64,000 bases of DNA, from NCBI GenBank assembly GCA_032718475.1, contig JAUCBJ010000751.1:1-64000 (forward strand), read 5' to 3'. The position numbers and the translations under genes are program-made. Positions 3,001-40,248 of the stretch are shown here, piece by piece. Below the pieces are notes generated by a model. The model saw only the letters and a program-made list of their open reading frames with translations. It searched no databases and was not told where the DNA came from. Position 1 is the stretch's first letter. Each line of letters starts with the position of its first letter. This DNA is from Nemertoderma westbladi. Lineage: Eukaryota; Animalia; Xenacoelomorpha.

Positions 3001-3188
3001 AGAACTGTTTATAAACTAACCTTACTGACAGATAACTGTTTATAAACTAACCTTACTGGCAGAGAACTGTTTATAAACTAACCTTACAGACAGAGAACTG
3101 TTTATAAACTAACCTTACTGACAGAGAACTGTTTATAAACTAACCTTACTGACTGAGAACTGTTTATAAACGAACCTTACTGGCAGAT
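69..3188. repeat. 31-bp satellite array, segment 1 (consensus AAACTAACCTTACTGGCAGAGAACTGTTTAT)
   Basis: Head-to-tail 31-nt monomers with recurring point variants (GGC/GAC, GAG/GAT, CACAT, GAAAAG). The left edge follows unique sequence at ~69. Confidence 0.98.
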
Positions 3189-3876
3189 TGTAAGAGCGGT
3201 TTCTATGCTCTTGTGTATAAAACAATAAGATGATCTATGTGATTGTAATATGTTCAACTATAGTTGGATTTCACCCAGTTTACACGGTTACGTCCCATAA
3301 AGAAGAATAATTTGTTTATTTGATTGGGAATTAGGAGCGTATTTATTATAGAAAATATATAAGATAATAATATACGATTATAAGCGGTAAGGGGTAATAA
3401 GATAACGGAAACATAAGAACATTAATACATAATAAGAGATCTAATAATATAAACGTAAAATATCGTAAGAGTCAAGAATACAAAGTAATAAAGAGTGTTA
3501 ATAGGGGGAGTTTCCGTTTGGGAAACTGCGGAATGAGATGAACTATAGTGAATGAGTAATGTTGAGCACGGTAAGCTGTAGAAATACAGTAAAGTAATAA
3601 TAGGGGTGACAGTGTGGTGGGCCTTGATTGGTTAATGGGTAATAAAGGATTGTAGCGCAGTGGAGATACCTACCTAATGTGGCTGAACAGGAGTGAAGGG
3701 AAGAATACAGCTGTTTATCTGTATAGGATAAACGGCTGTGAATGGGGGCAGACAATAATGGTCGAATGAGTATGTTGGAGATGAGATAGATATTGGTTTG
3801 CAACAATAAGCTGGGAGAATGGGCGGTAATGTAATGATAATATAATTTTAATGTTTGAGAGCGATCCGCCACTACA
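3189..3876 (-). repeat. 3' LTR of BEL family A
   Basis: TGTAAGAGCGG...CCGCCACTACA. Matches 12432-13119; I saw one substitution (CCTTGATT vs CCTTAATT). Confidence 0.97.
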
Positions 3877-3890
3877 GTCCCCCTTAAAAA
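3877..3890 (-). promoter_or_regulatory. Polypurine tract of BEL family A
   Basis: Minus strand reads TTTTTAAGGGGGAC immediately before the 3' LTR. Confidence 0.8.
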
Positions 3891-4913: not shown

Positions 4914-5990
4914 TTACTTATTTATTTCCTCTAAGAGGCATAGTTTATCAAGTGGTCTTTTGTAAACTCCCAAGGAGGTTTTTACTTCAACTGATCTAAT
5001 TAACCCCACATCATCAGGGTATACTTGCGTTATACGACCCACACTCCAACTACTGCGTGTTTGACCTTCATCTACAAGCAATACGACATCGCCTACTGCA
5101 AGGTTGTTGCGAACACGTGTCCACTTCTGTCTTGATTGAAGTGTCACTAAGTATTCGCGTACCCAGCGGGTCCAAAAATGATTGGCTAGTAACTGAGCCT
5201 GGCGCCATTTACGAGTTGAGTATGTATCACTGTCGTAGATGGGACCTGGTGGTAAATTGTAAGCAGGGCGCTGTAATAGAAGGTGGTTCGGAGTTAATAT
5301 TTCATCAGCTTTAGGGTCATCGGTACTAAGGCACAAGGGGCGGCTGTTTAGAATGCACTCTACTTCTGCTAATGATGTCACTAACACGTCATCTGTGACA
5401 AGAGAATTTCCAAGGACCTGAAACAGAACTTGTTTGATTGAACGGATCAGCCGTTCATATACACCACCCATATGGGGGGCGTACGGTGTTATAAATTTCC
5501 ATGTAATGCCCTTTGGGCGCAGGGCAATATCGATCTGATGTTCCCATAGTTCCAGGTTTTGCCGTAATTCTGAATCGGCACCTACGAAGTTTCCCCCATT
5601 GTCTGAAACTATTTCCTTTGGCGAACCTCTCCGTGCTTTAAAACGGGAGAACACATTGATAAAGGCATCAGCTGATGCATCAGCAGCTACATCGAGGTGT
5701 ACTGCTCTACAGTTAAGGCACGTAAAGATAAAGGCATAACGCTTTATAGAACCTCTCCCGTATTTGACCTTTAGTGGACCAAACATATCAACGGCTGAAA
5801 ACGTAAATGGCGGCTCATATGGGGTCAGTCTAGAGGACGGCAATGGCGCCATAAGCTGATTCACACGTGGAGCCTTACATTGCCGACATTTAAAGCACTT
5901 AGGTATTAAAGACTTGCAGAAAGTGATAAGGCCAGGGATCCAATAGGATTCCCTTACCTTGGCAACTACTTGGTTGGGACCGGCATGTAA
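4914..5990 (-). CDS. BEL/Pao integrase, separated from pol by a 1-nt frameshift
   Basis: Frame extends upstream of the listed ORF through LHAG...YWIP...CFKC (HHCC finger). DDE core AVDMFGP / SDNGGNF / GGVYERLI; C-terminal WTRWVREYL...W..GRITQVYP typical of BEL. Confidence 0.95.
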   Translation of the reverse strand, partial: LHAGPNQVVAKVRESYWIPGLITFCKSLIPKCFKCRQCKAPRVNQLMAPLPSSRLTPYEPPFTFSAVDMFGPLKVKYGRGSIKRYAFIFTCLNCRAVHLDVAADASADAFINVFSRFKARRGSPKEIVSDNGGNFVGADSELRQNLELWEHQIDIALRPKGITWKFITPYAPHMGGVYERLIRSIKQVLFQVLGNSLVTDDVLVTSLAEVECILNSRPLCLSTDDPKADEILTPNHLLLQRPAYNLPPGPIYDSDTYSTRKWRQAQLLANHFWTRWVREYLVTLQSRQKWTRVRNNLAVGDVVLLVDEGQTRSSWSVGRITQVYPDDVGLIRSVEVKTSLGVYKRPLDKLCLLEEINK

Positions 5991-5991
5991 T

Positions 5992-8900
5992 TTAATAGAT
6001 GTGCCAGTGCCATACTATGACATTTGTAAGTGGGTGTAACTTACTCAAAATTATAGGGTGTTTTGTATCGTAGGATACTGGGGCGGAGGTAATGCGGCCA
6101 CCTACCCGCAATAAACCATCCTGAGTTAGGATTGGGGCTAGATTAGCTAGTGGGCTTGAGCAAGCTACTGGGGATGAATGCAGTAACATTTGAATTTCGT
6201 TGGGATAGGATTGCCTCTGTGAGAAATAAATTAGACATCGTCCAGCATGGTGACGTTCACTTACCGAGACAAATTTCCCTTTAAGATTTAAGACCGAATT
6301 TGGATTTAAAGAATACTTGCAAAGACGTAAGATCCATGCGAACAGAGTCTGTAATTTATTCCATGACGAATGTTTAGCTATAAGTGAACCTATAGCATTA
6401 AATGCTGTGTTAGAATCAATGTGGACATTAAGAATTATTTCAGTGTCAGGATTGTGGTATGGTGTCTGTTCTTCGACAACTATGTCAAACCAGAAGTCTG
6501 TCATGGTGATGTCATCGTTATAATCAATATCAGATGATACCAATATATGAGAAGTTAACACATCTGGGTTATTGATTAGTGTATTAGTGATAGTTTCTGG
6601 GCATATGGTTGACACTGTCGTCCATGTTTCCTCAGGCTGAACGAGAAAAGGAGGCCCATGCCACCATTTCTGTGAATTAATGAGCTTGACTGCTGTAAGC
6701 CCACGAGTAATGTCATCTGCAGGGTTTAAATGACCAGGTACATGTTGCCATTGTGAACTGGTTGTACGATCAAGGATATACTTAGCGCGGTTGTGAACAA
6801 AACATCGAAATTGCTTGACGGTGTTGTTTATGTACCCAAGTACGACAGTAGAGTCTGTCCAAAAATAACATTTAGCGATTGGTAAGTCTAGGGATTCTAA
6901 CACAGTTTCACTTACCTGTGCTGCTAAAACTGCAGCTTGGAGCTCTAATCGGGGAACTGAATGTCCAGAGGCTGTACGAACTAACTTACCTTTGCTGAAA
7001 ACGAAAGATGAATTTATTTCATTTTCACTTACAGATCGGATGTACAATACTGTACCGTAGGCCACTTTAGAAGCGTCTGAGAAAATATGTAGCTGGTAGT
7101 TGATTGGACCCGAATGGACGGGTATGTACATCCTAGGGATTTCCAGTTCGCTAAGCATAGGAAGTTGATCTCGCCACTTCATCCATTGACGTGCTGTATC
7201 TGGTGGGAGTGGGGTATCCCAGTCTAATTCCATTGACCACATTTTTGCTATAACTAATCGACCTGCTATGATTAAAGGCAAGATGAAGTTAATGGGATCG
7301 TACAATGAGCTAGTCAAAGAGACGCATCCCCGTTTAGTTAATGGTGTGTTTTTAAGCACATAGGAGAATATGAAGTTATTTGAATTTGTGTCCCAGGAAA
7401 CTCCAAGGGCACGGGTTATAGGAAGATTATCAAAATCTAAGTTAATGAAGGATTTTGCCTTTTCTGAATCGGGAAAGGCATCTAGGAATTGTCTAGAATT
7501 GGAGGCAAATTTTGTGAGGTGAAAGCCACCTAATTTGAGGCAATCTACCATCCCAGAAGCGATGTGAATAGCTTCGGAGACAGATGCTGCACTTTTGAGG
7601 CCATCATCCACATACATGTGGCGATTAATGGCATCAATTACCTCCGGGCTAAAATGACTGGCATTATCAATAGCAGTTCGTTTGACTGATCCTGATGCCA
7701 CAAAGGATGAATCGCATGCACCAAATATATGTACTAACATTTGGTAAGTCTCCACTGTGGTAGAGCCATCGGGCTGCCACAAAAAGCGAAGACTATCGGC
7801 ATCGCCTGGTGTGACTCTCACCTGGTGGTACATTTCCTTTATGTCGCAGGTGAAAGCCACAGGATATTGTCGAAAACGCAAAAGAATTCCAATAAGGCTA
7901 CTGGTGAGATTAGGGCCTTCTAACAGTTGACTATTGAGGGACATCCCTCGGTATAAGGCAGCAGCATCATTTACGATCCTTATCTCACCAGGCTTGTTGG
8001 GATTCTCAACAAAATGATGGGCGAGGTAATATGTCTGTGGCCCTGGGGTTATCTCACATGGTAGGAGTTTGCGAGCATAACCCTTCAAGACATAATCGTC
8101 TATTTTTTGTTGATAAAGGGCATGGATATGTGGCTTACGATGTAGCTGACGGATTAAATATGCGAAACGGGATTTTGCCATATTATAATTATTAATTAAT
8201 AATGGAGGTGAGTCCCTCCAGAGCATTCCTACCTGATAGTGACCATCCACTAGACGCATTGACTTAGAAAACATTTCTAATGCTTTTAAGTCATCCATGG
8301 ATGGTGATAGAAACTCATCGATGAGGGGTGAGGGTTTTGGGTCTGAAGGTGAACTTTCAGCAAAACTCTGAAATTTCATCCATTGAGTGACCTGTTTAGA
8401 GATGTCGCGGTCTGTGCAAGGGTCATTGACTGTGATGTGATTAAACTGTGTTACTGTACTATTGGGTTCAACTGCTTTACAGCTCACAGGACCGATTATG
8501 CACCATCCAAATGGTGTCCTAATTGCAGAGGGATTAGGGTTCCCAGCCTTTGGGAATACATGTACATCCCTAGCTAGGGCCTCAGGATGGTTACCACCAA
8601 CCAGAATTGTGATTGATGGGATATCAAGATTAGGGCAGCATGTCACATATGGCAATATGTGATCTAAGTGCTGGAGCGTTTTAGGACACAGTTGTGTTAC
8701 GTCATATGAGTAATCCCTTTTGAAATCGGGGACTACAAATACTTGAGGCATGTTGATGACAAAATTGGGTTTAATTTCTGGCTGTCCTTTGATAGGTGAG
8801 ATACTACATGATATTTCCCCTAGAGAAACAGACATATTTGATTGGAAGACAGTACTGACATTAAGAGAAGTTGTTTCGGTAATGATACCAAGAGTATCGG

Positions 8901-11900
8901 TTACATTTTTGTCAACAAATGTCGCAGTAGACCCATCATCAAGAAGTGCATATGTAGTGAGTGATTTATTGGCAATGCATATGGTTACTGGGACTACTGA
9001 TAACCATACGGGTTGTACTTTGGCAATTGATAAGTGTACAGACATGGAATTGGTTGAACTTTGTGCGCTGATGTTGCCACCTTTAGATTTTGGTCGGTCG
9101 GTGTGGCTACCAGAGCTCTCACTACTCGCATGGTCCTTGACACTCTGTTTCGATTTATTGGAATCGGAAGCCTTTGAAAATACATACGCACCATGTAATA
9201 AGGTATTGTGTTTTCCTTTGCAATCGGGAGCAAAACACACATCAACAGATTTGCAGTCCGGAATAAGATGTGAATTTGCAAAACATCGAAAGCACAACTG
9301 GTATGAACGTACGCAGTTTAACCGTTCTTGTGGTGTAAGATTTAGAAAGGTTTTGCATTGACTGATTTTATGCCCATGTTGTTTACAGCATGGGCAGGGG
9401 TGGGATTTTAACACTTTGGGATTATTACCGACCCCTGAAGTAACTGGGATATGTACTTCAGTGGCCAAGGTTGTAACCTTTGGGCGAGGCTCAAATGAGC
9501 CACGGTCAACTATACTATAAACAGGGTCATTTATAATATCGGCTTCATTGTCAAGGAAGTCCGCAAGCTCATTGAGAGTGGGTTCCCTTTGAGAACGAGC
9601 ACGAATACCGTGAGCAACTCGACGCCATCTTGCAAGATGCTCAGTTGGTAGGTTAGAGGCAACTTGTTTGAGGTTCGAGGTAGCATTCATTTCATGACTG
9701 TTGCTTAAGTGCTGAAGAATGGTAACCTTACTTCTTACCTTATCAGCATAGTCACGAAGTTTTTCCCTTTTTATTCCAAAAGATCCATTTAAATCTACAG
9801 AAGAGACGAGATCTCTTAGTGTAGCTTCAATGATTACACTAGGGTGACCATAACGTTTATGCAAGGTCTCCCAAGCCTTAGTGTAACCATTTGAAAGTCC
9901 TTCATAAGCCTCAACTAGCTCATGAGGTTTGCCAGACGTATATTGTAAAAGGTACTGCAATTTTTCCACATCAGAAAAATCACGTAAGTCGATATGGGCC
10001 TTAAAGGTAGCCACAAAAGATATATACTTAGCTGAATCACCACTAAATTTTGTAGGTTCAGGGCGTGGCAAGGATAGCTTAGTATTTAATTTGCCTAAGG
10101 CATCTAGGGTGTGAGAGAGACCAGAATCTTGTAAGGCAAAATCTGATGGTGCACCATTGTGTGGGTTGGATAATGGGGACCCTCCAAAATAGGCACCACT
10201 TTTTACTATAGTGGGGTCACCTGCAATGGAAATACAAGATCTATCATTAGGGTTCATGGATGTAATACTCGATAGTGCAGAAATAGGAGCATTTCTATCG
10301 AAATATACTGGACCATTGTGTCCCCCCATGGCAAATTGTACATGATTTGAATTAGGAGCATTTACTGCAGACTGACCAACAGAGATTGAACTAGCAGTTA
10401 CAGATGCTACAGGATTACATAAAAATCCAGGAGTCTCACTGTATTGATACTGTAGGCCAGTGGTACTATATGGGAAATATTGTCCCTCGTCATATAAGTT
10501 TTGTCCCCCCATGGTAAATGATGGGACGTGAGATATATTATGGGTATTGTATCGCGCAGAAGAGGCAAACTTGGGGCGCCTCTCTTGTGCAGATTGACCC
10601 GGAACATTGATGGGACATGATGGGACACTTTGACCTATGGGGTGGGAAGGGTGGGGGAATTGTCCCCCTATGGGGTATGTTGAAACATATATAGATGGAC
10701 ATGTAAGGCTATTTACATCAAGAGATGTAAATGCCACAGGCTCCTCTTGACTAGATTGTTCCTGGCTGGTAGTAAGATAGGATGGGACATATTGTCCTCC
10801 AGAAGTATAGGATGAATAAATGCATTGTCCGGCCGAGGAACTTCTAGGATATCTCTGAGAATACTGACTTAAGGAAGATGCAGTATTAAAAGGCGATGTT
10901 GGGGGTATAAAGAGACCAGTTGTACAAAAATTACCTAGTGGGATAATTTCAGAAACTCTACTATTAATTAGCGCACTAGTGGGTCTTATAGGAGACGTAA
11001 GAGAAAAAATTGGAAGTTGAGATGACACTACTGACGTTGTTTCTACAGTGACAGGGTAGGAATGAGATTGACTAGACTGCAGATTATTTTGTGCTGATTC
11101 ATAGGAATCTGAGGCACTCACATTAACAGGTAGGCCCGTGGTTGCTATGGCAACAGGGTCGACTGGAGACTCTGATTGGATCCTTGTATTAACAGTCACA
11201 TTATTGTTAAGATTACTTTCAGTTTGTACACCAATTGGTACGTCATACGTGGGAGATCTTTTTGGTGATTGTAAAAGCGCAGAAGCTACATAATCTGCTT
11301 CTGCTTCTCCAAATTCAGGTGATTTCAACTCTAAAGCTTCTTCAAGTGCTGCAAGTGCAAGAGCATCGCGTAGGCCACGTTCCTTTGCCAAGCGAGAAAT
11401 TTCTTTCTGTTGCCGCTCTGATTTTTGTAATAGCCGCTCTGATTTTTGTAATATCAATGTGTCAGCCTGATCTGCCTGAGCAGCTGCTCCTGACTGCTCG
11501 AGCTGTAGCAGGAGTAATTTTCGCTTGACTTTGGCACGATGAACTCGAACTGATGCGCTCGTCGAGGCTCGAGAATGTGCTGTAGAACCAGAGTGAGTTG
11601 AAATTGTTCGATTACGTTTGAGCTCGCCAACTTGCAATTGTTCATGAGATGATACATACTGTGGAACATCTGAAGACACAACTACAATAGGTATGGCGTT
11701 ACTCCGACATGTCTGGGTCTGAGTCACGGTCTGCTCATTGCTATTAATATATTCGCGAATGTCATTGAGTTTAGATTCAAGGTCTGACAGTACAGTTACT
11801 GATTGTGCAGCTAGCTCACGTGACACATCAGAAAAACCAAATCTTTCGAAATCGAAAGTTGATTTTTCATAGTGACTACACAAAGATTTGTATACATTAA

Positions 11901-12246
11901 TACAAGAATTAAATATAGAATCGATATTAGTAGGGTCGAATGTAGCAGACCTTTGAATGGTAAACTCATTGAAACGTCGTGTAAAATGAGCCTTATAACC
12001 AGCAATCGTTCTCTTTACGTGAGTTAGATTAGGTACTGAACTCTCACTAGACATTTCTACGGTAGGATTTACAACAGATGCAACAGGAGTTGGTGAGATA
12101 ACGTTTTCAATACGTGTAGATGTAAGAGGTGACTTACCAGACTGTGTGGATACATCAGATTCCGAAGCTGAATGAATTTCGTCGTCCATTTGAACACCTT
12201 TGTTGTCCATATTTGTATCCAAATTAAATAAAGGTGTCGTCTTCAA
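5992..12246 (-). CDS. BEL/Pao gag-pol polyprotein (Gag, three Zn knuckles, protease, RT, RNase H)
   Basis: Gag PTKFSGDSAKY...EKLQYLLQY; knuckles CPCCKQHGHKISQC, CFRCFANSHLIPDC, CFAPDCKGKHNTLLH; protease ALLDDGSTATF; RT DIKEMYHQV and YVDD; RNase H IFSDASKVAYG...WTDS...NPADDITRG. True start codon uncertain (TTG or a downstream ATG). Confidence 0.96.
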   Translation of the reverse strand: MKTTPLFNLDTNMDNKGVQMDDEIHSASESDVSTQSGKSPLTSTRIENVISPTPVASVVNPTVEMSSESSVPNLTHVKRTIAGYKAHFTRRFNEFTIQRSATFDPTNIDSIFNSCINVYKSLCSHYEKSTFDFERFGFSDVSRELAAQSVTVLSDLESKLNDIREYINSNEQTVTQTQTCRSNAIPIVVVSSDVPQYVSSHEQLQVGELKRNRTISTHSGSTAHSRASTSASVRVHRAKVKRKLLLLQLEQSGAAAQADQADTLILQKSERLLQKSERQQKEISRLAKERGLRDALALAALEEALELKSPEFGEAEADYVASALLQSPKRSPTYDVPIGVQTESNLNNNVTVNTRIQSESPVDPVAIATTGLPVNVSASDSYESAQNNLQSSQSHSYPVTVETTSVVSSQLPIFSLTSPIRPTSALINSRVSEIIPLGNFCTTGLFIPPTSPFNTASSLSQYSQRYPRSSSAGQCIYSSYTSGGQYVPSYLTTSQEQSSQEEPVAFTSLDVNSLTCPSIYVSTYPIGGQFPHPSHPIGQSVPSCPINVPGQSAQERRPKFASSARYNTHNISHVPSFTMGGQNLYDEGQYFPYSTTGLQYQYSETPGFLCNPVASVTASSISVGQSAVNAPNSNHVQFAMGGHNGPVYFDRNAPISALSSITSMNPNDRSCISIAGDPTIVKSGAYFGGSPLSNPHNGAPSDFALQDSGLSHTLDALGKLNTKLSLPRPEPTKFSGDSAKYISFVATFKAHIDLRDFSDVEKLQYLLQYTSGKPHELVEAYEGLSNGYTKAWETLHKRYGHPSVIIEATLRDLVSSVDLNGSFGIKREKLRDYADKVRSKVTILQHLSNSHEMNATSNLKQVASNLPTEHLARWRRVAHGIRARSQREPTLNELADFLDNEADIINDPVYSIVDRGSFEPRPKVTTLATEVHIPVTSGVGNNPKVLKSHPCPCCKQHGHKISQCKTFLNLTPQERLNCVRSYQLCFRCFANSHLIPDCKSVDVCFAPDCKGKHNTLLHGAYVFSKASDSNKSKQSVKDHASSESSGSHTDRPKSKGGNISAQSSTNSMSVHLSIAKVQPVWLSVVPVTICIANKSLTTYALLDDGSTATFVDKNVTDTLGIITETTSLNVSTVFQSNMSVSLGEISCSISPIKGQPEIKPNFVINMPQVFVVPDFKRDYSYDVTQLCPKTLQHLDHILPYVTCCPNLDIPSITILVGGNHPEALARDVHVFPKAGNPNPSAIRTPFGWCIIGPVSCKAVEPNSTVTQFNHITVNDPCTDRDISKQVTQWMKFQSFAESSPSDPKPSPLIDEFLSPSMDDLKALEMFSKSMRLVDGHYQVGMLWRDSPPLLINNYNMAKSRFAYLIRQLHRKPHIHALYQQKIDDYVLKGYARKLLPCEITPGPQTYYLAHHFVENPNKPGEIRIVNDAAALYRGMSLNSQLLEGPNLTSSLIGILLRFRQYPVAFTCDIKEMYHQVRVTPGDADSLRFLWQPDGSTTVETYQMLVHIFGACDSSFVASGSVKRTAIDNASHFSPEVIDAINRHMYVDDGLKSAASVSEAIHIASGMVDCLKLGGFHLTKFASNSRQFLDAFPDSEKAKSFINLDFDNLPITRALGVSWDTNSNNFIFSYVLKNTPLTKRGCVSLTSSLYDPINFILPLIIAGRLVIAKMWSMELDWDTPLPPDTARQWMKWRDQLPMLSELEIPRMYIPVHSGPINYQLHIFSDASKVAYGTVLYIRSVSENEINSSFVFSKGKLVRTASGHSVPRLELQAAVLAAQVSETVLESLDLPIAKCYFWTDSTVVLGYINNTVKQFRCFVHNRAKYILDRTTSSQWQHVPGHLNPADDITRGLTAVKLINSQKWWHGPPFLVQPEETWTTVSTICPETITNTLINNPDVLTSHILVSSDIDYNDDITMTDFWFDIVVEEQTPYHNPDTEIILNVHIDSNTAFNAIGSLIAKHSSWNKLQTLFAWILRLCKYSLNPNSVLNLKGKFVSVSERHHAGRCLIYFSQRQSYPNEIQMLLHSSPVACSSPLANLAPILTQDGLLRVGGRITSAPVSYDTKHPIILSKLHPLTNVIVWHWHIY

Positions 12247-12421
12247 AATTAAAGTCTAGCTACGGTAGTTAGAATCGCCTAAATAGACTGTAATACATAC
12301 CAACTTGGCTACAAAAGCTTAGTAACGTGGTATAGTAAAGAATTACTAAGAAATAAAATAATTAATATACAATTTAATTTATTTATTTATAATTGTAAAT
12401 TTCATAGAGTTTTATTTGAGT

Positions 12422-12431
12422 TTTCCCAAAC
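12422..12431 (-). promoter_or_regulatory. Non-tRNA primer-binding site of BEL family A (candidate self-priming PBS)
   Basis: Minus strand GTTTGGGAAA directly abuts the 5' LTR and is complementary to TTTCCCAAAC (minus strand) in the LTR at 12759-12768. Confidence 0.65.
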
Positions 12432-13119
12432 TGTAAGAGCGGTTTCTATGCTCTTGTGTATAAAACAATAAGATGATCTATGTGATTGTAATATGTTCAA
12501 CTATAGTTGGATTTCACCCAGTTTACACGGTTACGTCCCATAAAGAAGAATAATTTGTTTATTTGATTGGGAATTAGGAGCGTATTTATTATAGAAAATA
12601 TATAAGATAATAATATACGATTATAAGCGGTAAGGGGTAATAAGATAACGGAAACATAAGAACATTAATACATAATAAGAGATCTAATAATATAAACGTA
12701 AAATATCGTAAGAGTCAAGAATACAAAGTAATAAAGAGTGTTAATAGGGGGAGTTTCCGTTTGGGAAACTGCGGAATGAGATGAACTATAGTGAATGAGT
12801 AATGTTGAGCACGGTAAGCTGTAGAAATACAGTAAAGTAATAATAGGGGTGACAGTGTGGTGGGCCTTAATTGGTTAATGGGTAATAAAGGATTGTAGCG
12901 CAGTGGAGATACCTACCTAATGTGGCTGAACAGGAGTGAAGGGAAGAATACAGCTGTTTATCTGTATAGGATAAACGGCTGTGAATGGGGGCAGACAATA
13001 ATGGTCGAATGAGTATGTTGGAGATGAGATAGATATTGGTTTGCAACAATAAGCTGGGAGAATGGGCGGTAATGTAATGATAATATAATTTTAATGTTTG
13101 AGAGCGATCCGCCACTACA
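12432..13119 (-). repeat. 5' LTR of BEL family A
   Basis: 688 bp, TG...CA, near-identical to 3189-3876. Minus-strand AATAAA near 12558 and CCAAT near 12872. Confidence 0.97.
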
Positions 13120-16100
13120 CAGATAACTGTTTATAAACTAACCTTACTGGCAGAGAACTGTTTATAAACTAACCTTACTGGCAGATAACTGTTTATAAAC
13201 TAACTTTACTGGCAGAGAACTGTTTAAAACTAACCTTACTGACAGAGAACTGTTTATAAACTAACCTTACTGGCAGATAACTGTTTATGAACTAACCTTA
13301 CTGGCAGAGAACTGTTTATAAACTAACCTTACTGGCACATAACTGTTTATAAACTAACCTTACTGGCACATAACTGTTTATAAACTAACCTTATTGGCAG
13401 AGAACTGTTTATAAACTAACCTTACTGGCATATAACTGTTTATAAACTAACCCTACTGGCAGAGACCTGTTTATAAACTAACCTTACTGACAGAGAACTG
13501 TTTATAAACTAACCTTACTGGCATATAACTGTTTATAAACTAACCCTACTTGCAGATAACTGTTTATAAACTAACCTTACTGACAGAGAACTGTTTATAA
13601 ACTAACCTTACTGGCAGATAACTGTTTATAAACTAACCTTACTGACAGAGAACTGTTTATAAACTAACCTTACTGGCAGAAAACTGTTTATAAACTAACC
13701 TTATTGGCAGATAACTGTTTATAAACTAACCTTACTGGCAGAGAACTGTTTATAAACTAACCTTACTGACAGATAACTGTTTATAAACTAACCTTACTGG
13801 AAAAGAGAACTGTTTATAAACTAACCTTACTGGCAGAAAACTGTTTATAAACTAACCTTACTGGTAGAGAACTGTTTATAAACTAACTTACTGACAGAGA
13901 ACTGTTTATAAACTAACCTTACTGGCAGAGAACTGTTTATAAACTAACCTTACTGGCAGAGACCTGAGTATAAACTAACCTTACTGGCAGAGAACTGTTT
14001 ATAAACTAACCTTACTGGCAGAGAACTGTTTATAAACTAACCTTACTGGCAGAGAACTGTTTACAAACTAACCTTACTGACAGATAACTGTTTATAAACT
14101 AACCTTACTGGCAGAGAATTGTTTATAAACTAACCTTACTGGCAGAGAACTGTGTATAAACTAACCTTACTGGCATAGAACTGTTTATAAACTAACCCTA
14201 CTGGCAGAGAACTGTTTATAAACTAACTTTACTGGCAGAGAACTGTTTATAAACTAACCTTACTGACAGATAACTGTTTATAAACTAACCTTACTGGCAG
14301 AGAACTGTTTATAAACTAACCTTACTGACAGAGAACTGTTTATAAACTAACCTTACTGGGAGAGAACTGTTTATAAACTAACCTTACTGGCAGAGAACTG
14401 TTTATAAACTAACCTTACTGACAGATAACTGTTTATAAACTAACCTTACTGACAGAGAACTGTTTATAAACTAACCTTACTGGGAGAGAACTGTTTATAA
14501 ACTAACCTTACTGGCAGAGAACTGTTTATAAACTAACCTTACTGGCTGAGAACTGTTTATAAACTAACCTTACTGGCAGAGAACTGTTTATAAACTAACC
14601 TTACTGGCAGAGACCTGAGTATAAACTAACCTTACTGGCAGAGAACTGTTTATAAACTAACCTTACTGGCAGAGAACTGTTTATAAACTAACCTTACTGG
14701 CAGAGAACTGTTTACAAACTAACCTTACTGACAGATAACTGTTTATAAACTAACCTTACTGGCAGAGAACTGTTTATAAACTAACCTTACTGGCAGAGAA
14801 CTGTGTATAAACTAACCTTACTGGCATAGAACTGTTTATAAACTAACCTTACTGGCAGAGAACTGTTTACAAACTAACCTTACTGACAGATAACTGTTTA
14901 TAAACTAACCTTACTGGCAGAGAACTGTTTATAAACTAACCTTACTGGCAGAGAACTGTGTATAAACTAACCTTACTGGCAGAGAACTGTTTATAAACTA
15001 ACCTTACTGGCAGAGAACTGTTTATAAACTAACTTTACTGGCAGAGAACTGTTTATAAACTAACCTTACTGACAGATAACTGTTTATAAACTAACCTTAC
15101 TGGCAGAGAACTGTTTATAAACTAACCTTACTGACAGAGAACTGTTTATAAACTAACCTTACTGGGAGAGAACTGTTTATAAACTAACCTTACTGGCAGA
15201 GAACTGTTTATAAACTAACCTTACTGACAGATAACTGTTTATAAACTAACCTTACTGACAGAGAACTGTTTATAAACTAAACTTACTGGGAGAGAACTGT
15301 TTATAAACTAACCTTACTGGCAGAGAACTGTTTATAAACTAACCTTACTGGCTGAGAACTGTTTATAAACTAACCTTACTGACAGATAACTGTTTATAAA
15401 CTAACCTTACTGGCAGAGAACTGTTTATAAACTAACCTTACAGACAGAGAACTGTTTATAAACTAACCTTACTGACAGAGAACTGTTTATAAACTAACCT
15501 TACTGACTGAGAACTGTTTATAAACGAACCTTACTGGCAGATAACTGTTTATAAACTAACCTTACTGGCAGAGAACTGTTTATAAACTAACCTTACTGGC
15601 AGAGAACTGTTTATAAACTAACTTTACTGGCAGAGAACTGTTTAAAACTAACCTTACTGACAGAGAACTGTTTATAAACTAACCTTACTGACAGAGAACT
15701 GTTTATAAACTAACCTTACTGACTGAGAACTGTTTATAAACGAACCTTACTGGCAGATAACTGTTTATAAACTAACCTTACTGGCAGAGAACTGTTTATA
15801 AACTAACCTTACTGGCAGAGAACTGTTTATAAACTAACTTTACTGGCAGAGAACTGTTTAAAACTAACCTTACTGACAGAGAACTGTTTATAAACTAACC
15901 TTACTGGAAGATAACTGTTTATGAACTAACCTTACTGGCAGAGAACTGTTTATAAACTAACCTTACTGGCACATAACTGTTTATAAACTAACCTTACTGG
16001 CACATAACTGTTTATAAACTAACCTTATTGGCAGAGAACTGTTTATAAACTAACCTTACTGGCATATAACTGTTTATAAACTAACCCTACTGGCAGAGAC

Positions 16101-16776
16101 CTGTTTATAAACTAACCTTACTGACAGAGAACTGTTTATAAACTAACCTTACTGACAGAGAACTGTTTATAAACTAACCTTACTGGCATATAACTGTTTA
16201 TAAACTAACCCTACTTGCAGATAACTGTTTATAAACTAACCTTACTGACAGAGAACTGTTTATAAACTAACCTTACTGGCAGATAACTGTTTATAAACTA
16301 ACCTTACTGACAGAGAACTGTTTATAAACTAACCTTACTGGCAGAAAACTGTTTATAAACTAACCTTATTGGCAGATAACTGTTTATAAACTAACCTTAC
16401 TGGCAGAGAACTGTTTATAAACTAACCTTACTGACAGATAACTGTTTATAAACTAACCTTACTGGAAAAGAGAACTGTTTATAAACTAACCTTACTGGCA
16501 GAAAACTGTTTATAAACTAACCTTACTGGCAGAGAACTGTTTATAAACTAACTTACTGACAGAGAACTGTTTATAAACTAACCTTACTGGCAGAGAACTG
16601 TTTATAAACTAACCTTACTGGCAGAGACCTGAGTATAAACTAACCTTACTGACAGAGAACTGTTTATAAACTAACCTTACTGGGAGAGAACTGTTTATAA
16701 ACTAACCTTACTGGCAGAGAACTGTTTATAAACTAACCTTACTGACAGATAACTGTTTATAAACTAACCTTACTGA
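13120..16776. repeat. 31-bp satellite array, segment 2
   Basis: Same monomer; register continues exactly across the CAGAT TSD. Confidence 0.98.
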
Positions 16777-19210
16777 TGGACATGTAAGGCTATTTACATC
16801 AAGAGATGTAAATGCCACAGGCTCCTCTTGACTAGATTGTTCCCGGCTGGTAGTAAGATAGGATGGGACATATTGTCCTCCAGAAGTATAGGATGAATAA
16901 ATGCATTGTCCGGCCGAGGAACTTCTAGGATATCTCTGAGAATACTGACTTAAGGAAGATGCAGTATTAAAAGGCGATGTTGGGGGTATAAAGAGACCAG
17001 TTGTACAAAAATTACCTAGTGGGATAATTTCAGAAACTCTACTATTAATTAGCGCACTAGTGGGTCTTATAGGAGACGTAAGAGAAAAAATTGGAAGTTG
17101 AGATGACACTACTGACGTTGTTTCTACAGTGACAGGGTAGGAATGAGATTGACTAGACTGCAGATTATTTTGTGCTGATTCATAGGAATCTGAGGCACTC
17201 ACATTAACAGGTAGGCCCGTGGTTGCTATGGCAACAGGGTCGACTGGAGGGCGACTGGAGACTCTGATTGGATCCTTGTATTAACAGTCACATTATTGTT
17301 AAGATTACTTTCAGTTTGTACACCAATTGGTACGTCATACGTGGGAGATCTTTTTGGTGATTGTAATAGCGCAGAAGCTACATAATCTGCTTCTGCTTCT
17401 CCAAATTCAGGTGATTTCAACTCTAAAGCTTCTTCAAGTGCTGCAAGTGCAAGAGCATCGCGTAGGCCACGTTCCTTTGCCAAGCGAGAAATTTCTTTCT
17501 GTTGCCGCTCTGATTTTTGTAATAGCCGCTCTGATTTTTGTAATATCAATGTGTCAGCCTGATCTGCCTGAGCAGCTGCTCCTGACTGCTCGAGCTGTAG
17601 CAGGAGTAATTTTCGCTTGACTTTGGCACGATGAACTCGAACTGATGCGCTCGTCGAGGCTCGAGAATGTGCTGTAGAACCAGAGTGAGTTGAAATTGTT
17701 CGATTACGTTTGAGCTCGCCAACTTGCAATTGTTCATGAGATGATACATACTGTGGAACATCTGAAGACACAACTACAATAGGTATGGCGTTACTCCGAC
17801 ATGTCTGGGTCTGAGTCACGGTCTGCTCATTGCTATTAATATATTCGCGAATGTCATTGAGTTTAGATTCAAGGTCTGACAGTACAGTTACTGATTGTGC
17901 AGCTAGCTCACGTGACACATCAGAAAAACCAAATCTTTCGAAATCGAAAGTTGATTTTTCATAGTGACTACACAAAGATTTGTATACATTAATACAAGAA
18001 TTAAATATAGAATCGATATTAGTAGGGTCGAATGTAGCAGACCTTTGAATGGTAAACTCATTGAAACGTCGTGTAAAATGATCCTTATAACCAGCAATCG
18101 TTCTCTTTACGTGAGTTAGATTAGGTACTGAACTCTCACTAGACATTTCTACGGTAGGATTTACAACAGATGCAACAGGAGTTGGTGAGATAACGTTTTC
18201 AATACGTGTAGATGTAAGAGGTGACTTACCAGACTGTGTGGATACATCAGATTCCGAAGCTGAATGAATTTCGTCGTCCATTTGAACACCTTTGTTGTCC
18301 ATATTTGTATCCAAATTAAATAAAGGTGTCGTCTTCAAAATTAAAGTCTAGCTACGGTAGTTAGAATCGCCTAAATAGACTGTAATACATACCAACTTGG
18401 CTACAAAAGCTTAGTAACGTGGTATAGTAAAGAATTACTAAGAAATAAAATAATTAATATACAATTTAATTTATTTATTTATAATTGTAAATTTCATAGA
18501 GTTTTATTTGAGTTTTCCCAAACTGTAAGAGCGGTTTCTATGCTCTTGTGTATAAAACAATAAGATGATCTATGTGATTGTAATATGTTCAACTATAGTT
18601 GGATTTCACCCAGTTTACACGGTTACGTCCCATAAAGAAGAATAATTTGTTTATTTGATTGGGAATTAGGAGCGTATTTATTATAGAAAATATATAAGAT
18701 AATAATATACGATTATAAGCGGTAAGGGGTAATAAGATAACGGAAACATAAGAACATTAATACATAATAAGAGATCTAATAATATAAACGTAAAATATCG
18801 TAAGAGTCAAGAATACAAAGTAATAAAGAGTGTTAATAGGGGGAGTTTCCGTTTGGGAAACTGCGGAATGAGATGAACTATAGTGAATGAGTAATGTTGA
18901 GCACGGTAAGCTGTAGAAATACAGTAAAGTAATAATAGGGGTGACAGTGTGGTGGGCCTTGATTGGTTAATGGGTATAAAGGATTGTAGCGCAGTGGAGA
19001 TACCTACCTAATGTGGCTGAACAGGAGTGAAGGGAAGAATACAGCTGTTTATCTGTATAGGATAAACGGCTGTGAATGGGGGCAGACAATAATGGTCGAA
19101 TGAGTATGTTGGAGATGAGATAGATATTGGTTTGCAACAATAAGCTGGGAGAATGGGCGGTAATGTAATGATAATATAATTTTAATGTTTGAGAGCGATC
19201 CGCCACTACA
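16775..19210 (-). mobile_element. Truncated second copy of BEL family A (5' LTR 18524-19210 plus 5' part of gag)
   Basis: Near-identical to 10694-13119. An 11-nt duplication near 17241-17260 frameshifts gag; the LTR has a 1-nt deletion; the left end joins the satellite at a GA microhomology. Confidence 0.96.
16777..18338 (-). pseudogene. Truncated, frameshifted BEL gag N-terminus
   Basis: ORFs 17226-18338 and 16726-17202 reproduce about the first 520 aa of the 2084-aa ORF and then run into satellite. Confidence 0.93.
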
Positions 19211-26754: not shown

Positions 26755-26991
26755 TGTGGTGATAATATATGGCTCGCCCCATGGACACCCTGGGACGAGG
26801 GGGGAGAGACCTACCGGTGTTGGACAGTCTGTATGTCGGTGTTAGTCAGTCAGTACCACCAGTTTATCTAGGCTACTTACTGCATGCCCTGACCGGTCCA
26901 CAGAGGACCCTATTATATATGATCACAGTATCTGCTACAGACAAAGGTTTTGTTCGTCTGCTGCCTCGCAGCAATAGTAGATACGCCCACA
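26755..26991 (+). repeat. 5' LTR (237 bp) of the Mag-like element
   Basis: TGTGG...CCACA terminal inverted repeat, followed immediately by a TGG PBS. No second LTR to confirm. Confidence 0.85.
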
Positions 26992-27009
26992 TGGCGCAGT
27001 GTGTAGGAT
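26992..27009 (+). promoter_or_regulatory. tRNA primer-binding site, probably tRNA-Ser
   Basis: TGGCGCAGTGTGTAGGAT resembles the complement of a tRNA-Ser 3' end (TGGCGCAGTCGGTAGGAT, from memory). Confidence 0.7.
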
Positions 27010-27020
27010 AACTTGGGCCC

Positions 27021-27977
27021 ATGCCGCCTAAATCCAAAGGGAAGATCACGTCCCCGCCCACGGCGGACAGCAGCGACGGCGATGAAACTCTAGAAGCCCG
27101 AGGCGGCAGGCGCGCCCCTATCCGAATGGACGACCTCGCGCGAATCCTCGCCCAACAGCAGACTGCTATGGCTCAGCTGCTGGCGCAACAGCAGGAGGAC
27201 GCCAACCGTCGCCAGGAGGCTGCGGATGACCGCCTACTTCAACAACAGGCGGCCGCAGACGACCGCATCGCTAAACTCCTCGCGGCTTTACAACCCGGCA
27301 TGGCGGCGGCCGCCACACCGGAACTACCGACGACCCAACCCACGTACGCGGGGGCCGTCACGAACCCGGTTCCCCGACGCCGGGTAATCGACATCTCGAC
27401 GATGGAGAAGATCGACGTGGACGTCGAGTTCTCCATGTTCCGCCGGTGGAGACAGGCTTGGCGGGTCCACGCCCACCGACAACAGGTCGCTACGTTCCCG
27501 CGAGCAGAGCAGGTTTATGCTCTCGTTGCTGCCCTCGGTAGCGGCCTACAGGAGACCATCCGCGTCACCCTACACGTGGACATCGACGCGGACGATACAA
27601 CCACAGAGACGGTCCTCGATGCACTCCAGGGCCACCTCCGCGCCAAGAGGAGTATCGCGATCGACGCGATCAAGTTCCACGAGCGCCGGCAAGGCGCGAC
27701 CGAGGGATTCGATTCCTTCCGGGTGGCCCTGGAGGATCTCGCAGACACTGCGGAGCTCTGTGGGAACTGCCGCGACCGGCAGATCGTTACCCAGATCCTA
27801 GTGGGTCTCCGATGTTCAGAGACCCGGACGGAACTCCTCAAGGTTCTTCCTCAACTGACCCTCGAGGACTGCGTGAGGATCGCGCAGAGCGTGGAAGCCA
27901 GCGAATGGAACGACTCGATCCTCGCGAGCGGGAAACCAGTAAACCTCATCACCCGACCCTGCGTGGCGGAACCCTAG
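27021..27977 (+). CDS. Gypsy/Mag Gag (frameshifted just before the zinc knuckles)
   Basis: KFHERRQGATEGFDSFRVALEDLADTAELC...RDRQIVTQILVGL...LTLEDCVRIAQSVE. Knuckles CGNCGREPH...C and CHGCGRTGHIKRMC lie in the downstream pol frame. Confidence 0.88.
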   Translation: MPPKSKGKITSPPTADSSDGDETLEARGGRRAPIRMDDLARILAQQQTAMAQLLAQQQEDANRRQEAADDRLLQQQAAADDRIAKLLAALQPGMAAAATPELPTTQPTYAGAVTNPVPRRRVIDISTMEKIDVDVEFSMFRRWRQAWRVHAHRQQVATFPRAEQVYALVAALGSGLQETIRVTLHVDIDADDTTTETVLDALQGHLRAKRSIAIDAIKFHERRQGATEGFDSFRVALEDLADTAELCGNCRDRQIVTQILVGLRCSETRTELLKVLPQLTLEDCVRIAQSVEASEWNDSILASGKPVNLITRPCVAEP

Positions 27978-27990
27978 CGGCCGCAGTTGC

Positions 27991-29640
27991 GGCAACTGCG
28001 GCCGGGAACCCCATGAGGCGGGCTCGGAATGCCCCGCCAAGGGGGTCAAGTGCCACGGCTGTGGCAGGACGGGGCATATCAAGCGGATGTGCCGGTCCCG
28101 ATCCGCCACCAAGAAGAGGGTGTCCACAGTGTACCACTGCCAGAGTATTAGCAGCGTTGCCAACAATCAGGAAACAGCCTGCAAACTCTCTTATATCGCG
28201 GTGGGCCTGACGGACTCCGGGATCGGGAACCTCAAGGGGACGGTTCGTCACTCCCTCCCGGACAGTGGTGCGGCCGCTAACATCTTTAACCAGGGACTGT
28301 TTCTCCGGTTCGGAGGGCGACTCGACGACCTCCTCCCGCTTCGAGATGACGACAAGTTCGAGGCGGCCAACCGACTCCCCATGGCGGCCGTGGGGAGGTA
28401 CCCAGTGGAGATCAACTACTGCGGGACGACAGCGACCACTGAGCTGGTCATCTCTCCTGAGTCCGACGGACTGATCCTCTCGAAGAAGTCCATCCAGGAC
28501 CTGGACATCCTCCCGCGCACCTTCCCGGCGCCCCTACACAGCCGCGGAACCGTCGCTTCTGTTGCTCCGTCCCCGGCGATCCGCTCCCGGGACAATCTCC
28601 TCCGCGAGTTCAGCGACGTGTTTGACAACGACTCCGCGCCTCTTCCAATGATGCATGGCCCGCCCATGCGTATCCAGCTGAAGGACGGGGCCAAGCCGTT
28701 CCACGTCAACGGCGCAAGACCTGTCCCGTTCGCGATGCGGGATGAGGTGAAAGAACTCCTCGACAAGCTAGAGCGACGGGAAGTCATCACCCGGGTCGAG
28801 GAACCTACGGAATGGGCCCATCCGATGACGGTGGCGCCTAAACCCAACGGAGGACTGCGACTCTGCGTGGACCTCCGCCACCTAAACTCGCAGGTCCGAC
28901 GCCCCTATTACCCGACGCCGAATCCACGGACCGCAGTCGCCGGAGTCTCCACGACTGCAAAGATTTTCTCCGTGTTCGACGCAGCCAGTGGCTACTGGCA
29001 GGTTCCCCTCAATGAGGAATCCCAACTCCTCACCACCTTCGCGACTCCCTGGGGCCGGTACTGTCACACTCGTAGTGTGATGGGGCTGATCTCGTCCGGC
29101 GACGAGTTTAACCGTCGAGGCGACGACGCCATCCAGGGACTTCCTAACCTCATCAAGGTTGTAGACGATGTACTCCTCTACAACGATACAATGGAGGAAC
29201 ACATGGAGAACATCGCGAGGTTTATGGAGCGGTGCCGGACCTACGGGATCATGTTACACCCGGGGAAGGTTCAGTTTGCCCAGACCGAGGTTCGGTTCGC
29301 TGGGTACCTCGTCGGCGCCTCCGGGATAAAAGCCGACCCTGAGAAACTGAAGGCGATCGCCGGCTTCCCCTGCCCTGGGAACATCACCGATCTACGGAGC
29401 TTCCTCGGACTGGTGGAGCAACTCGCTCCGTTCTCAGCAGACATCGCTGCCGCGATGTCCCCGCTACGTCCCCTCCTAAGCACGAAGGCGACCTTCATCT
29501 GGACGGTGGACCACAAACGGGCCTTCGAGGCCACCAAGCTGGCTCTGACGTCACCGCCGGCCCTCGTCCCGTTCGACACGACCCGGGAGACCCGCCTAGT
29601 GACAGACGTGTCCCGGCTGAAGGGCCTCGGCTACGCCCTC
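27991..29640 (+). pseudogene. Gypsy/Mag Zn knuckles + protease + reverse transcriptase + truncated RNase H
   Basis: PDSGAAANI (PR); WAHPM...GLRLCVDLRHLN, FDAASGYWQVPL and VVDDVLL (RT); LVTDVSRLKGLGYALL (RNase H start). No integrase. Confidence 0.93.
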
Positions 29641-33650: not shown

Positions 33651-36600
33651 ATGTTCGACTTCCTCAAACCTTCTAAAGTTAATCGACAGTGCGTAAGCAA
33701 CCGCAGGAGGGCGTACCTAAACATAAGAGATACCGAGAGTAAACGCAGGATGGCGTACCTAAACATAAGAGATACCGTGAGTAACCACAGGAGGGCGTAC
33801 CTAAACATAAGAGTTACCGTGAGTAACCGCAGGAGGGAGTACCTAAACATATGAGATACCGTGAGTAACAGCAGGAGGGCGTACCTAAACATAAGAGATA
33901 TCGTGAGCAACCGCAGGAGGGCGTACCTAATCATAAGAGATACCGTGAGTAACCACAGGAGGGCGTACCTAAACATAAGAGATACCGTGAGTAACAGCTT
34001 ACAACGTCCGCCAATTGAGGCCGCTCGTGTCGACGGTATACTCGTTGAACCTCCGGACAATCGAGCGGATCTTGTCCGTCGTATGGTACACGAGGTCAAC
34101 CTACGCGCTAGACCTTTACCGAACTCATTTTATGGGATCAAAGACCATCCTTATTATGTTAATCTAACTCAATATTATATGGTGAAACCAGAAGATCCTA
34201 CACACAGTTTAAAGTTTCTACCACTGATAAATCCCCCCGATCTTGTCGAACTCGAACAACTACAGAAACATCTGGATCAGTTAGTGAAAGTAAACTCATT
34301 CAGAAAACCTTACAATGTTTCTAGAATAGAAAAAGATATAATTCCCCCATATAATCTCGATGGATTTATTAAAACTCGATTAGTCCATTGGAATCTCGAT
34401 GTATAATTCGAGGAAGAGAGAATACAGCGATATGGAGATGTAGAGACGTATACTACACATTATCTGAAGTATAGCGATCTACCTAGCGCTAGCGAACGCG
34501 CCACTTTTTGGCATCCGGTGGGTATGACCATAGAAAACGCCACCAAAGAGTGGAACGAAACTCTTAATGTTATCGAAATGTATGGAGTTGTCACTTACGA
34601 TAACGAAGGCAGCGTTCCGGTTGGAGAACTGGGAACTATGTGGATGATACACATACGTGGGCTAGCTGGTTCTACCCATGTGTTTACCCGAGCGTGTTCC
34701 GACGTGATCGATTATTCTTTTGAGACTCTCACAGAAATCCAAAAGAAACTCCGACATGGACAATTCGAACTCGCACAGCGTTACTTCACCGATACCGAGC
34801 GCAAACCAGCCATAGGTATAGATGGATCGATGTTACCCCAACCAGTGCTCGAGATGTTGTTTAACGAAAGAATCCTTAAAATCGGGTCAGCTGTTTATGG
34901 AGATCTCCAGAACGACTTCAGGAACATGGAGAATATCCCATATCCTTTCGTAGACACCCAGCTGATTGCTCCCTGGGCAGAAGGCCAAGGTTTCTTCCGC
35001 ACTATGTATGCCAATACATCCAGCGGCATCAATAAAGTACAACGAACCTCCATCGGACATCTTGCCTTTCAAGAATACGGATGGGATTTCAAAGTCGGAA
35101 ACCCTATCAACTATCAACAAGTATATGGAGATCATTATTCTTGATTATACTTCGACGGACCATTGACTGCACCTGGCGTCGTGTATAGCTTCATGAGTGT
35201 TCCACTTCATCCCTCATTAGCTATATACACTATCTTCGAAAACGCCGCACTTGCCGGTTGGTTAGCCGATGTGTGCAGTCGTACTATACGCGCCCATCCC
35301 TTGTTACTTGGAACCAAACTCGCCAAGCTAGATGAACACAATAAATTCATCCGCTTTGAATGTTTTAGGCGCTTTCTGACTCTGTTCCGTAACGTCGATA
35401 GTCAGTTCAAGGACCGTGATCTGACTAAGCTCAGCCTAAGAGACTCAGCGGCTGAGATGTTAGACAGTGCTGGATTTGCCATTTTCAAGGACGTTTGTAT
35501 ACAGAACTTACATTCCTCTGTCATACAAAGACCCCAAATCCCCACAGGTTATTCTATCGTGGAAGTTCAAACAGTGGGTTCGCTTGAGAAGACAGCTACA
35601 TCTACCTCAGCTATGCAATTGGAAGACAAACCAATATGCTTAGAATCCGAAGAGATTCAGCCCACAGCGCCCAGGAGCAGTGACAACGACTACGTCCTGG
35701 AATGGTATCAAGGTCCACAATGTCTCACCGCATACGACTATTGGCATGCCAATTATGTTTCTAGGAAACGTTGCCGATTATGCGCATCACGAGACCATTT
35801 CACACCGGTGGACTCCAGCATACCCTGCTCCTACTTCCAAGACCAACCTACAATGGAGATCTATTGTGCGTATTGTAGACTCAATAACTTACACATCTTT
35901 GCAGTCTGCCCTCAATTTATGACTCAATGCCATCATTGCCAGTTTAAAGGACACGCAAGTTTTGATTGCCCTTTCAACCGAGATCTGGAAAGCGTAGACG
36001 AAATGGTTGCCCTGCGCTACATCCGAGCCTGGGAAGGTAACGCGGATCTCCATTGTGAGTCACGTCATCGATACTACCCTGGAAGGAGTTTATGAAGGAG
36101 TTTATGCGTTTCACACGTATCTCTTTGCTTCCGTTGAGCAAAAATCTCGCACACCGAGCTACGAGCTAATGAAGCGCGTTGGCGAGAATATTTCGACCAA
36201 ATTTGTTCGAAAGTACCTCAGGAACATTAATCCTAATGACCTTAATTCCTATAACTTGATCAACTTCATCTGTCAAGATCCGGAATATGGTGACTTGTTC
36301 ATCAACTCGCATCCAGAACTACAGGAAGTTCATAGACGACCCTATGAATATAGAGCCCAAGAACGCGAGTTAGAAAGAACCGTCACACTGAGAAAATTCC
36401 TCACTACTCACGGTCCACCTACCGCTCTCGTGCAAACGACTCGTCACGGACCAGTAAGAGCTGCTGTCTTGAAACGCGCTCTAAAGGTTGTTCGACCTCG
36501 TTCCACTGAGGTTGATATCGATCAACCGGGTACCTCGACCGGCGGATACACCGACCGTAACCCTAAACCTTCCGATGCAATTGTATTGCACCCTTCACCC

Positions 36601-36702
36601 AGGAGTTATAGTCCTCCTAGTAAAGTGGCTCGCCCAAAAGAGAAAAGGACTCTTGCTAGCCTCAAAAAACTTCGTAAACGCCGTTCACGTAAGAAGGACT
36701 AA
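33651..36702 (+). pseudogene. Disrupted ~1000-aa accessory ORF: Arg-rich 14-aa repeats, DEDDy (WRN/EXD-like) 3'-5' exonuclease, Cys/His zinc knuckles, basic NLS-like tail
   Basis: ORFs at 33651, 33861, 34518 and 35163 share one frame, separated by single stops; one frameshift leads to 36007-36702. Motifs VVTYDNEG (ExoI), LPQPVLEMLFNERILKIGSAVYGDL...FVDTQ (ExoII region), PLHPSLAIYTIFE (ExoIII-like), CHHCQFKGHASFDC. Confidence 0.72.
33690..33996 (+). repeat. 42-bp coding tandem repeat, about 7 copies (VSNRRRAYLNIRDT)
   Basis: GTGAGTAACCACAGGAGGGCGTACCTAAACATAAGAGATACC units; one copy carries AGA>TGA. Confidence 0.95.
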
Positions 36703-36771
36703 TTGTTTAGAGTATTTTTATATTTTAGAAACTGTGATTTTTTATATTTTATAGAATTAAATCCCATTCTC

Positions 36772-36860
36772 TGGGAGCGGTGTAAAAGCTTTTGCAGACA
36801 TAACAAGTCATTTTTCCCCGCAATGCGCAGTGTAGGTTCTTTAGCGGACAGTAACATATT
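36772..36860 (+). mobile_element. PPT and start of a 3' LTR related to BEL family B (right end not determined)
   Basis: TGGGAGCGG|TGTAAAAGCTTTTGC...AGTCATTTTTCCCCGCAA aligns with 50014-50065; similarity fades after about 70 bp. Confidence 0.82.
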
Positions 36861-37992: not shown

Positions 37993-38337
37993 GCCGTGCC
38001 AGTGTAGAAGCGTGGCCCAGCTCCCGGGTAGAGAAGTGACACATCACCCCGTGCCCGTGTAGAAGCATGACCCTGCGCCCGCGTAGAGATGTGACCCGGC
38101 GCACGGGTAGAGACTCAACACATCACCCTGTGCCCATGTAGAAGCGTGACTCCGCACCCGTGTAGAAACGTGACCCTGCGCCCGTGTAGAGACGTGACCC
38201 GGCGCCCGGGTAGAGACGTGACACATCACCCCGTGCCTGTGTAGAAGCGTGACCCCGCGCCCATGTAGAAGCGTGACCCTGCGCCCGTGTAGAGGCGTGA
38301 CCCCGCGCCCGTGTAGAAGCATGACCCTGTGACCCGA
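37993..38337. repeat. GC-rich 24/34-bp minisatellite, left part
   Basis: GCCCGTGTAGAAGCGTGACCCCGC units interspersed with GTGACACATCACCC-containing longer units. Confidence 0.93.
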
Positions 38338-38344
38338 CAGGGTA

Positions 38345-40238: not shown

Positions 40239-40248
40239 ATAACAGATA
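40239..40248 (+). promoter_or_regulatory. Non-tRNA primer-binding site of BEL family B (candidate self-priming PBS)
   Basis: ATAACAGATA abuts the LTR, has no TGG, and is the exact complement of TATCTGTTAT in the LTR at 39508-39517. Confidence 0.65.

Follow-up and report, generated by a model that had tools for sequence, protein, structure and literature searches.

The window analysed here is a stretch of 64,000 nt from Nemertoderma westbladi (GCA_032718475.1, contig JAUCBJ010000751.1, positions 1-64,000, forward strand) and contains two BEL elements, referred to as element A and element B, that are distant from each other. Element A is embedded in an array of a 31-bp satellite (69-33201), which also hosts a truncated second copy of it. 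The two copies differ in their flanks. A gypsy-like piece with RT/RNase H sequence lies in the array as well, at about 26757-29639. The features of element A are as follows.

13119-3189, minus strand: element A, a BEL/Pao retrotransposon inside the 31-bp satellite
12432-13119, minus strand: 5' LTR, 688 bp, TG...CA
3189-3876, minus strand: 3' LTR, 688 bp
3184-3188 and 13120-13124: target duplication of 5 bp within the satellite
12558-12590, minus strand: two AATAAA candidates for poly(A) signals (12590, 12563)
5992-12255, minus strand: long open frame of 2087 codons with Gag, protease, RT and RNase H region
4914-6014, minus strand: integrase frame with Integrase_H2C2, rve and DUF5641 (Pfam)
3878-3885, minus strand: polypurine tract ahead of the 3' LTR
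16775-19210, minus strand: truncated second copy, 99.3% identical, with LTR, primer-binding-site (PBS) position 18523-18514 and the start of gag

According to Pfam and motif comparisons, the long frame encodes a Gag with DUF1759 and two zinc knuckles, an RT with the motif YVDD and an RNase H region with Peptidase_A17. The Pfam matches include PF03564, PF05380 and PF18701 as well as a weak match to rve, and the order is PR-RT-RH-IN. RNase H-type acidic motifs are present by motif reading. The two LTRs are 99.86% identical, their sole difference being position 12869, adjoining a CCAAT box. Both terminate in ...TTACA, beyond which the 5' LTR is followed by GTTTGGGAAAACT and the 3' LTR by the target duplication. 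Based on the domains, the RT, protease, zinc-knuckle and RNase H-type motifs, the LTR identity, the target duplication and the polypurine tract, element A is a young BEL/Pao element with pol split near position 6000; it combines DUF1759 in Gag, Pao-type pol and integrase with DUF5641 with TG...CA LTRs, the polypurine tract and the target duplication, all of which characterize this group. The integrase frame overlaps the end of the long frame (5992-6014) in a different frame. This split of pol before the integrase occurs despite LTRs that differ by a single base, and a recent mutation and a programmed shift are two options.

The best homologues of element A are 41-46% identical and have the same domains, with one exception, a top-scoring match with repeated segments and 32% identity; the named ones are from corals, echinoderms and a hemichordate. 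There were no relatives among the viral contigs scanned. No Pfam match to a chromodomain was found in element A, which accordingly does not group with Tf1/sushi (Ty3/gypsy chromovirus) elements.

Element B is arranged on the opposite strand.

39062-40238, plus strand: 5' LTR, 1177 bp
40239-40248, plus strand: PBS position, ATAACAGATA, pairing 10/10 with 39508-39517
44102-46930, plus strand: BEL Gag-protease frame, with about 26% identity to element A
50022-51198, plus strand: 3' LTR; LTRs 98.9% identical, with a 5-bp target duplication

No match to RT or integrase was found in element B. The element (39062-51198) has a leader duplication of 300 bp and is apparently inserted in another RT gene, pieces of which (RVT_1) lie at 38333-39088 and 51180-52097. 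A fragment at 36545-36850 is 89% similar to the 3' end of element B together with the start of its LTR and represents the remains of a sister family.

Complementarity between the PBS position and the LTR

The following features of element A, all on the minus strand, may relate to the initiation of reverse transcription.

12422-12431: PBS position, GTTTGGGAAA, abutting the 5' LTR (reaching 12419 with one bulged A)
12759-12770: candidate self-primer, the complement of the PBS
12435-12455: U5 stem-loop of 6 bp beside the PBS, predicted pairing probability 0.95
12753-12758: arm able to form a 7-bp hairpin with the primer, or in the predicted fold captured by 12655-12650 (0.54)
12870-12874: CCAAT box, 104 nt upstream of 12770
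12769-12916: candidate LTR intron of 148 nt, with a donor-like site at 12916 and an acceptor-like CAG ending at 12769

An earlier sequence-only reading of this DNA had claimed that the PBS of element A is complementary to the element's own LTR, and this is borne out. The 5' LTR has an exact end, and immediately beyond it the PBS forms 10/10 pairs with the LTR segment 12768-12759; positions 12770-12769 contribute two more base pairs across a bulge, giving 12 bp with one A bulged. The occurrences of CAGTTTCCCAAAC, which corresponds to 12771-12759, are limited to the three LTR copies. Element A consequently has, directly next to its 5' LTR, a stretch of at least 10 nt that is complementary to the LTR. 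Dinucleotide shuffling of the LTR, repeated 20,000 times, produced the 10-mer complement in 35 cases, a match of at least 10 nt at an offset of 0-5 in 125, and the 12-mer with the bulge in 3. Among 8,545 internal positions, the PBS included, just 5 have a 10-nt complement in the LTR. The duplex of primer and PBS is modest (-13.1 kcal/mol), and a competing local hairpin has -7.3 kcal/mol. The U5 hairpin (12455-12450 with 12440-12435) and the CCAAT box beginning at 12874 are likewise as that reading had described them. It had also cited the second copy as preserving the arrangement; the PBS is indeed kept at 18523-18514, but at 99.3% identity the truncated copy is not independent evidence. Element B, on the other hand, repeats the layout of element A with different letters: its PBS has a 10/10 self-complement at offset 0, and no TGG.

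The same reading had matched the PBS to no tRNA 3' end. No listed metazoan tRNA 3' end fits, and the claim stands to that extent, but a TGG at +4 of the PBS had been overlooked. The comparison was made with supplementary file 1 of PMC13524379, in which the last 12 nt of metazoan tRNAs are matched to element PBSs. The tRNA end that element A would need is in no entry of the list, which is a metazoan compilation and not the host's own tRNA set, and no entry was seen by eye within 3 mismatches of it. Nor does this list point to an 18-nt PBS of the tRNA type in element A. In the same file, and by eye, the tRNA-type sites of three related loci described below (L023, L026, L040) are closest to tRNA-Tyr ends, not to those of tRNA-Arg or tRNA-Gly, which ICTV names. 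No tRNA genes were found in the 64-kb window or in the 80 related loci, and an Rfam scan of 12200-13200 gave a single weak chance match. The base C61 is conserved in tRNAs. It is missing from the end derived from the TGG of element A and present in those of the tRNA-using L023, L040 and L026; this test is merely indicative, since L031 also fails it.

Related loci in metagenomes

A metagenome scan yielded 80 loci related to element A, at 36-45% identity. The curated set consists of the 12 loci to which an LTR end was assigned, in most cases from the divergence of the 5' and 3' LTRs and in several by eye; the remaining 68 mostly have too little LTR on the contig or an LTR end that could not be fixed. 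Under strict rules, 8 of the 12 curated loci have a self-complement of their own of 10-13 nt. In three (L037, L056, L073) the complement is contiguous, with 10-12 nt, and in five (L005, L006, L011, L034, L070) it has 11-13 nt and exists solely across a predicted GTAAG...YAG junction within the LTR. L018 has less than 10 nt under the strict acceptor rule and a 10-nt spliced match with a looser acceptor, which raises the count to 9/12. L023 and L026 have tRNA-type TGG sites, and L039 falls in neither class, with no match at an offset of 0-4. When LTRs were combined with mismatched PBSs as a control, 1 of 174 pairs reached 10 nt. Thus the comparison of PBS and LTR across related families, proposed in the sequence-only reading as a check, finds complementarity kept with different sequences. 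At 472-484 of L039, 8 nt past the assigned LTR end, there is a 13-nt complement to the 3' LTR, and the 5' LTR is without that stretch (by eye).

A looser screen covered 55 upstream regions and left 25 of the 80 loci unscreened; L058, outside the screen window, was read by eye. It added spliced matches in L009, L021, L036 (15 nt), L059, L063 and L077 and contiguous ones in L041, L045, L061 and L065, and chance matches also appeared. Spliced self-matches were found in 14 of the 34 regions with a candidate junction, compared to 99 of 1,741 cross pairs. In total there are 19 positive relatives. The spliced kind accounts for 12 of them, and their predicted introns span about 70-420 nt. A PBS of 10-15 nt that pairs just to a predicted exon-exon junction was noted in L005, L006, L008, L009, L011, L012, L017, L018, L021, L034, L036, L050, L058, L059, L063, L069, L070 and L077; the predicted LTR introns of these loci have GTAAG or GTGAG donors.

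The relatives resemble element A in some details of the match. The matched PBS begins with GT in 17 of the 19, as in element A, and ACA immediately precedes the match in L018, L059 and L063, again as in element A. L045, L056 and L073 fall in one clade; they differ in both PBS and LTR and yet stay paired. A quick tree of RT/RNase H sequences (81 rows), which includes no named references, shows the spliced and contiguous types interspersed. Element A has a long branch (1.29) and an uncertain place in this tree, and the relatives therefore support the lineage and not element A directly.

Primer origin and predicted RNA structure

What is directly observed is where the LTR ends, that the PBS has a 10/10 complement in it, that a site of the tRNA type is absent, and that element B and relatives share this arrangement in other letters. 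Judging from the sequences, element A probably dispenses with a host tRNA and primes reverse transcription from a 10-nt LTR segment of its own RNA; like the sequence-only reading, which had proposed it, we consider self-priming of this element likely. The proposal is well supported by the covariation in relatives and by element B, and its RNase H cleavage step is carried over from Tf1. In Tf1 of S. pombe, the first 11 nt of the element's own mRNA prime at a PBS abutting the LTR and are released by RNase H. In element A, the 5' part of the RNA (from 12770 or 12768 to 12759) would fold onto the PBS, and this folding would be helped by the U5 stem and by capture of the arm of the competing hairpin at 12655-12650. 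By analogy with Tf1, a cut would follow after 12759, probably made by the element's RNase H, and the RT would extend the new 3' end (…AC) into U5.

Predicted folds of the RNA depend strongly on its 5' end. The primer:PBS duplex has a probability of 0.81-0.89 if an unspliced RNA begins between 12768 and 12785, of at most 0.06 if it begins between 12800 and 13040, and of 0.65-0.87 in spliced RNAs. Alternatively, the primer segment can pair with the sequence immediately following it, in a local hairpin of 7 bp. A stem between U5 and leader has a local fold z of -2.54 and does not exceed 0.4 in the full-leader fold; the long-range folds of the leader are predictions. Flanking stems of the Tf1 type reach p <=0.05 in element A and, among the 19 positive relatives, in a single one; they are not general. 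The three-duplex structure of Tf1 is only partly seen in these models of element A.

Where the 5' end of the primer comes from has two main answers. Given self-priming, we lean towards a transcription start at or just above 12770, as the sequence-only reading had proposed. The CCAAT-to-start spacing would be typical, such a primer would be paired over its whole length apart from one bulge, and a pyrimidine-purine step is present at the start of the match in 15 of 20 other elements versus a background of 0.47 (p 0.011, a post hoc statistic on related elements that are not independent). No TATA-like box was found 25-30 nt above 12770. An internal duplication in the LTR was considered as the origin of its two CCAAT boxes and was not found. 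The second answer, given self-priming a lesser though substantial possibility, is that a 148-nt LTR intron is removed from an RNA started upstream. The CAG that had been called initiator-like is equally acceptor-like, and the 10-nt match begins right after it; a donor-like site of the class found at 12916 occurs in 50 of 5,000 shuffles, and any donor-like site in 532 of 5,000. Splicing of such an RNA gives the same junction bases and the same predicted duplex, so that sequence cannot tell the two models apart; the start near 12770 is slightly favoured. Nor can an upstream extension of the duplex separate them: it reaches p <=0.05 in 3 of the 19 relatives (combined p 0.043) and is absent from element A in either form. 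Junctions that would lengthen the perfect match of element A were rejected, as they have weak or GC donors only. Trans-splicing of a leader onto 12768 is given low weight; the literature search found no spliced leader with the end that would be needed.

A stronger claim is that splicing is required, with transcription starting above 12916, the LTR intron removed and a short exon 1 joined to 12768. This is a sub-case of self-priming that contradicts the start site of the sequence-only reading, and the attraction is that removal of the intron deletes sequence that blocks the duplex, which is predicted to be restored in the spliced RNA. The exact position of the match behind the acceptor-like CAG, the donor-like site 148 nt upstream and the prevalence of the spliced kind among relatives are all in favour of it. 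However, exon 1 contributes 4-7 paired bases in the spliced relatives and none of the perfect 10 in element A, where the splice leaves the same two bases before the match and hence the same two bulged pairs; for this reason the duplex energy is unchanged (-13.3 spliced versus -13.1), and there is no extra upstream pairing in the spliced form (p 0.62). The CCAAT box nearer 12770 would moreover fall inside the intron. We regard a strict requirement for splicing in element A as rather unlikely.

It is improbable that a small RNA of the host serves as primer, be it a tRNA half, a tRNA end placed by the TGG at +4 or some other species, with the LTR complement serving a structural or regulatory role such as a switch or packaging. 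Belpaoviridae are described as tRNA-primed by ICTV (PMC8742986), and the position of the TGG recalls the spacing in the tRNA-using L023 and L026 (+6 and +8), but PBS and LTR change together between families, and the needed end is neither in the metazoan list nor provided with C61, the latter point being not decisive. Least probable is that the match in element A arose by chance or as a by-product of a local inverted repeat and that priming follows some unrecognised route. There are merely 10 perfect pairs in a C/T-rich LTR, and element A has no close relatives that could display a covariation of its own; against this stand the rarity of the match in shuffles, a duplex that ends exactly at the LTR boundary, and the same layout in element B and most testable relatives.

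Self-priming of element A being the preferred reading, a broader but doubtful generalization is that a large BEL/Pao lineage, related to the elements of corals and echinoderms, self-primes, with many primers built by the spliceosome from an LTR intron. The intron 12916-12769 of element A would then act as a gate, such that only spliced RNA folds, and intronless families would have arisen when the spliced form was copied back into the LTR.

Comparison with known priming systems

The sequences point to what is likely a known mechanism, for which our searches turned up no precedent in this superfamily; in relatives a form with a predicted splice-built primer occurs. If true, self-priming would occur in all three main LTR superfamilies and be common among testable BEL relatives, which would account for annotation calls of a "missing PBS". 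Such elements would be independent of host tRNAs and presumably not open to control by tRNA fragments at the PBS, and in the relatives a splice-built primer would couple the onset of reverse transcription to splicing by the host. In the BEL group, Cer7 of C. elegans has reportedly been proposed to supply its own primer, which is said to be an encoded tRNA-like segment and not a 5'-LTR primer. BEL self-priming is absent from the accessible portions of PMC3118150, PMC554778, PMC6238403, PMC3286476, PMC3601003, PMC6934838, PMC5445492 and PMC13524379, and no report for BEL/Pao was found in a search that reached few subscription papers, Repbase entries and bioRxiv supplements.

Belpaoviridae (Semotivirus) are defined with an 18-nt PBS for tRNA-Arg or tRNA-Gly, and their tRNA-primed replication is described as poorly understood (PMC8742986). 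Element A is like them in its LTRs, the gag-pol order PR-RT-RH-IN, the polypurine tract and a size near 10 kb, and unlike their definition in having no 18-nt tRNA PBS (PMC8742986). Self-priming has been described in Tf1/sushi elements and predicted for plant chromoviruses of the Tcn1 type and for TAR elements of Ty1/copia, using as criterion a complementary stretch of at least 10 bp that starts 0-5 bp after the 5' LTR (PMC6317226, available portion). Elements A and B both have complements of this length at such a position. Tcn1 (Ty3/gypsy) and TAR (Ty1/copia) are plant lineages, in contrast, and no splice-built primer is described for them in that portion of PMC6317226. In Tf1 and Tf2 of S. 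pombe, Tj1 and Tosmo1-3, the PBS pairs with an LTR stretch that is predicted to be the 5' end of the RNA, and self-priming of the Tf1 type involves a three-duplex "pretzel" with stems flanking the PBS (accessible text of PMC10085805 and PMC4600332). Element A resembles Tf1/sushi, as portrayed in those two sources, in a PBS that complements an LTR stretch, in the lack of a tRNA site and, in part, in predicted stems near the PBS. It differs from them in its BEL/Pao domains without a chromodomain match, and in that its start and cleavage are deduced here. In most positive relatives, furthermore, the primer would arise only across a predicted splice, a feature undescribed for Tf1 in the accessible text of PMC10085805 and PMC4600332.
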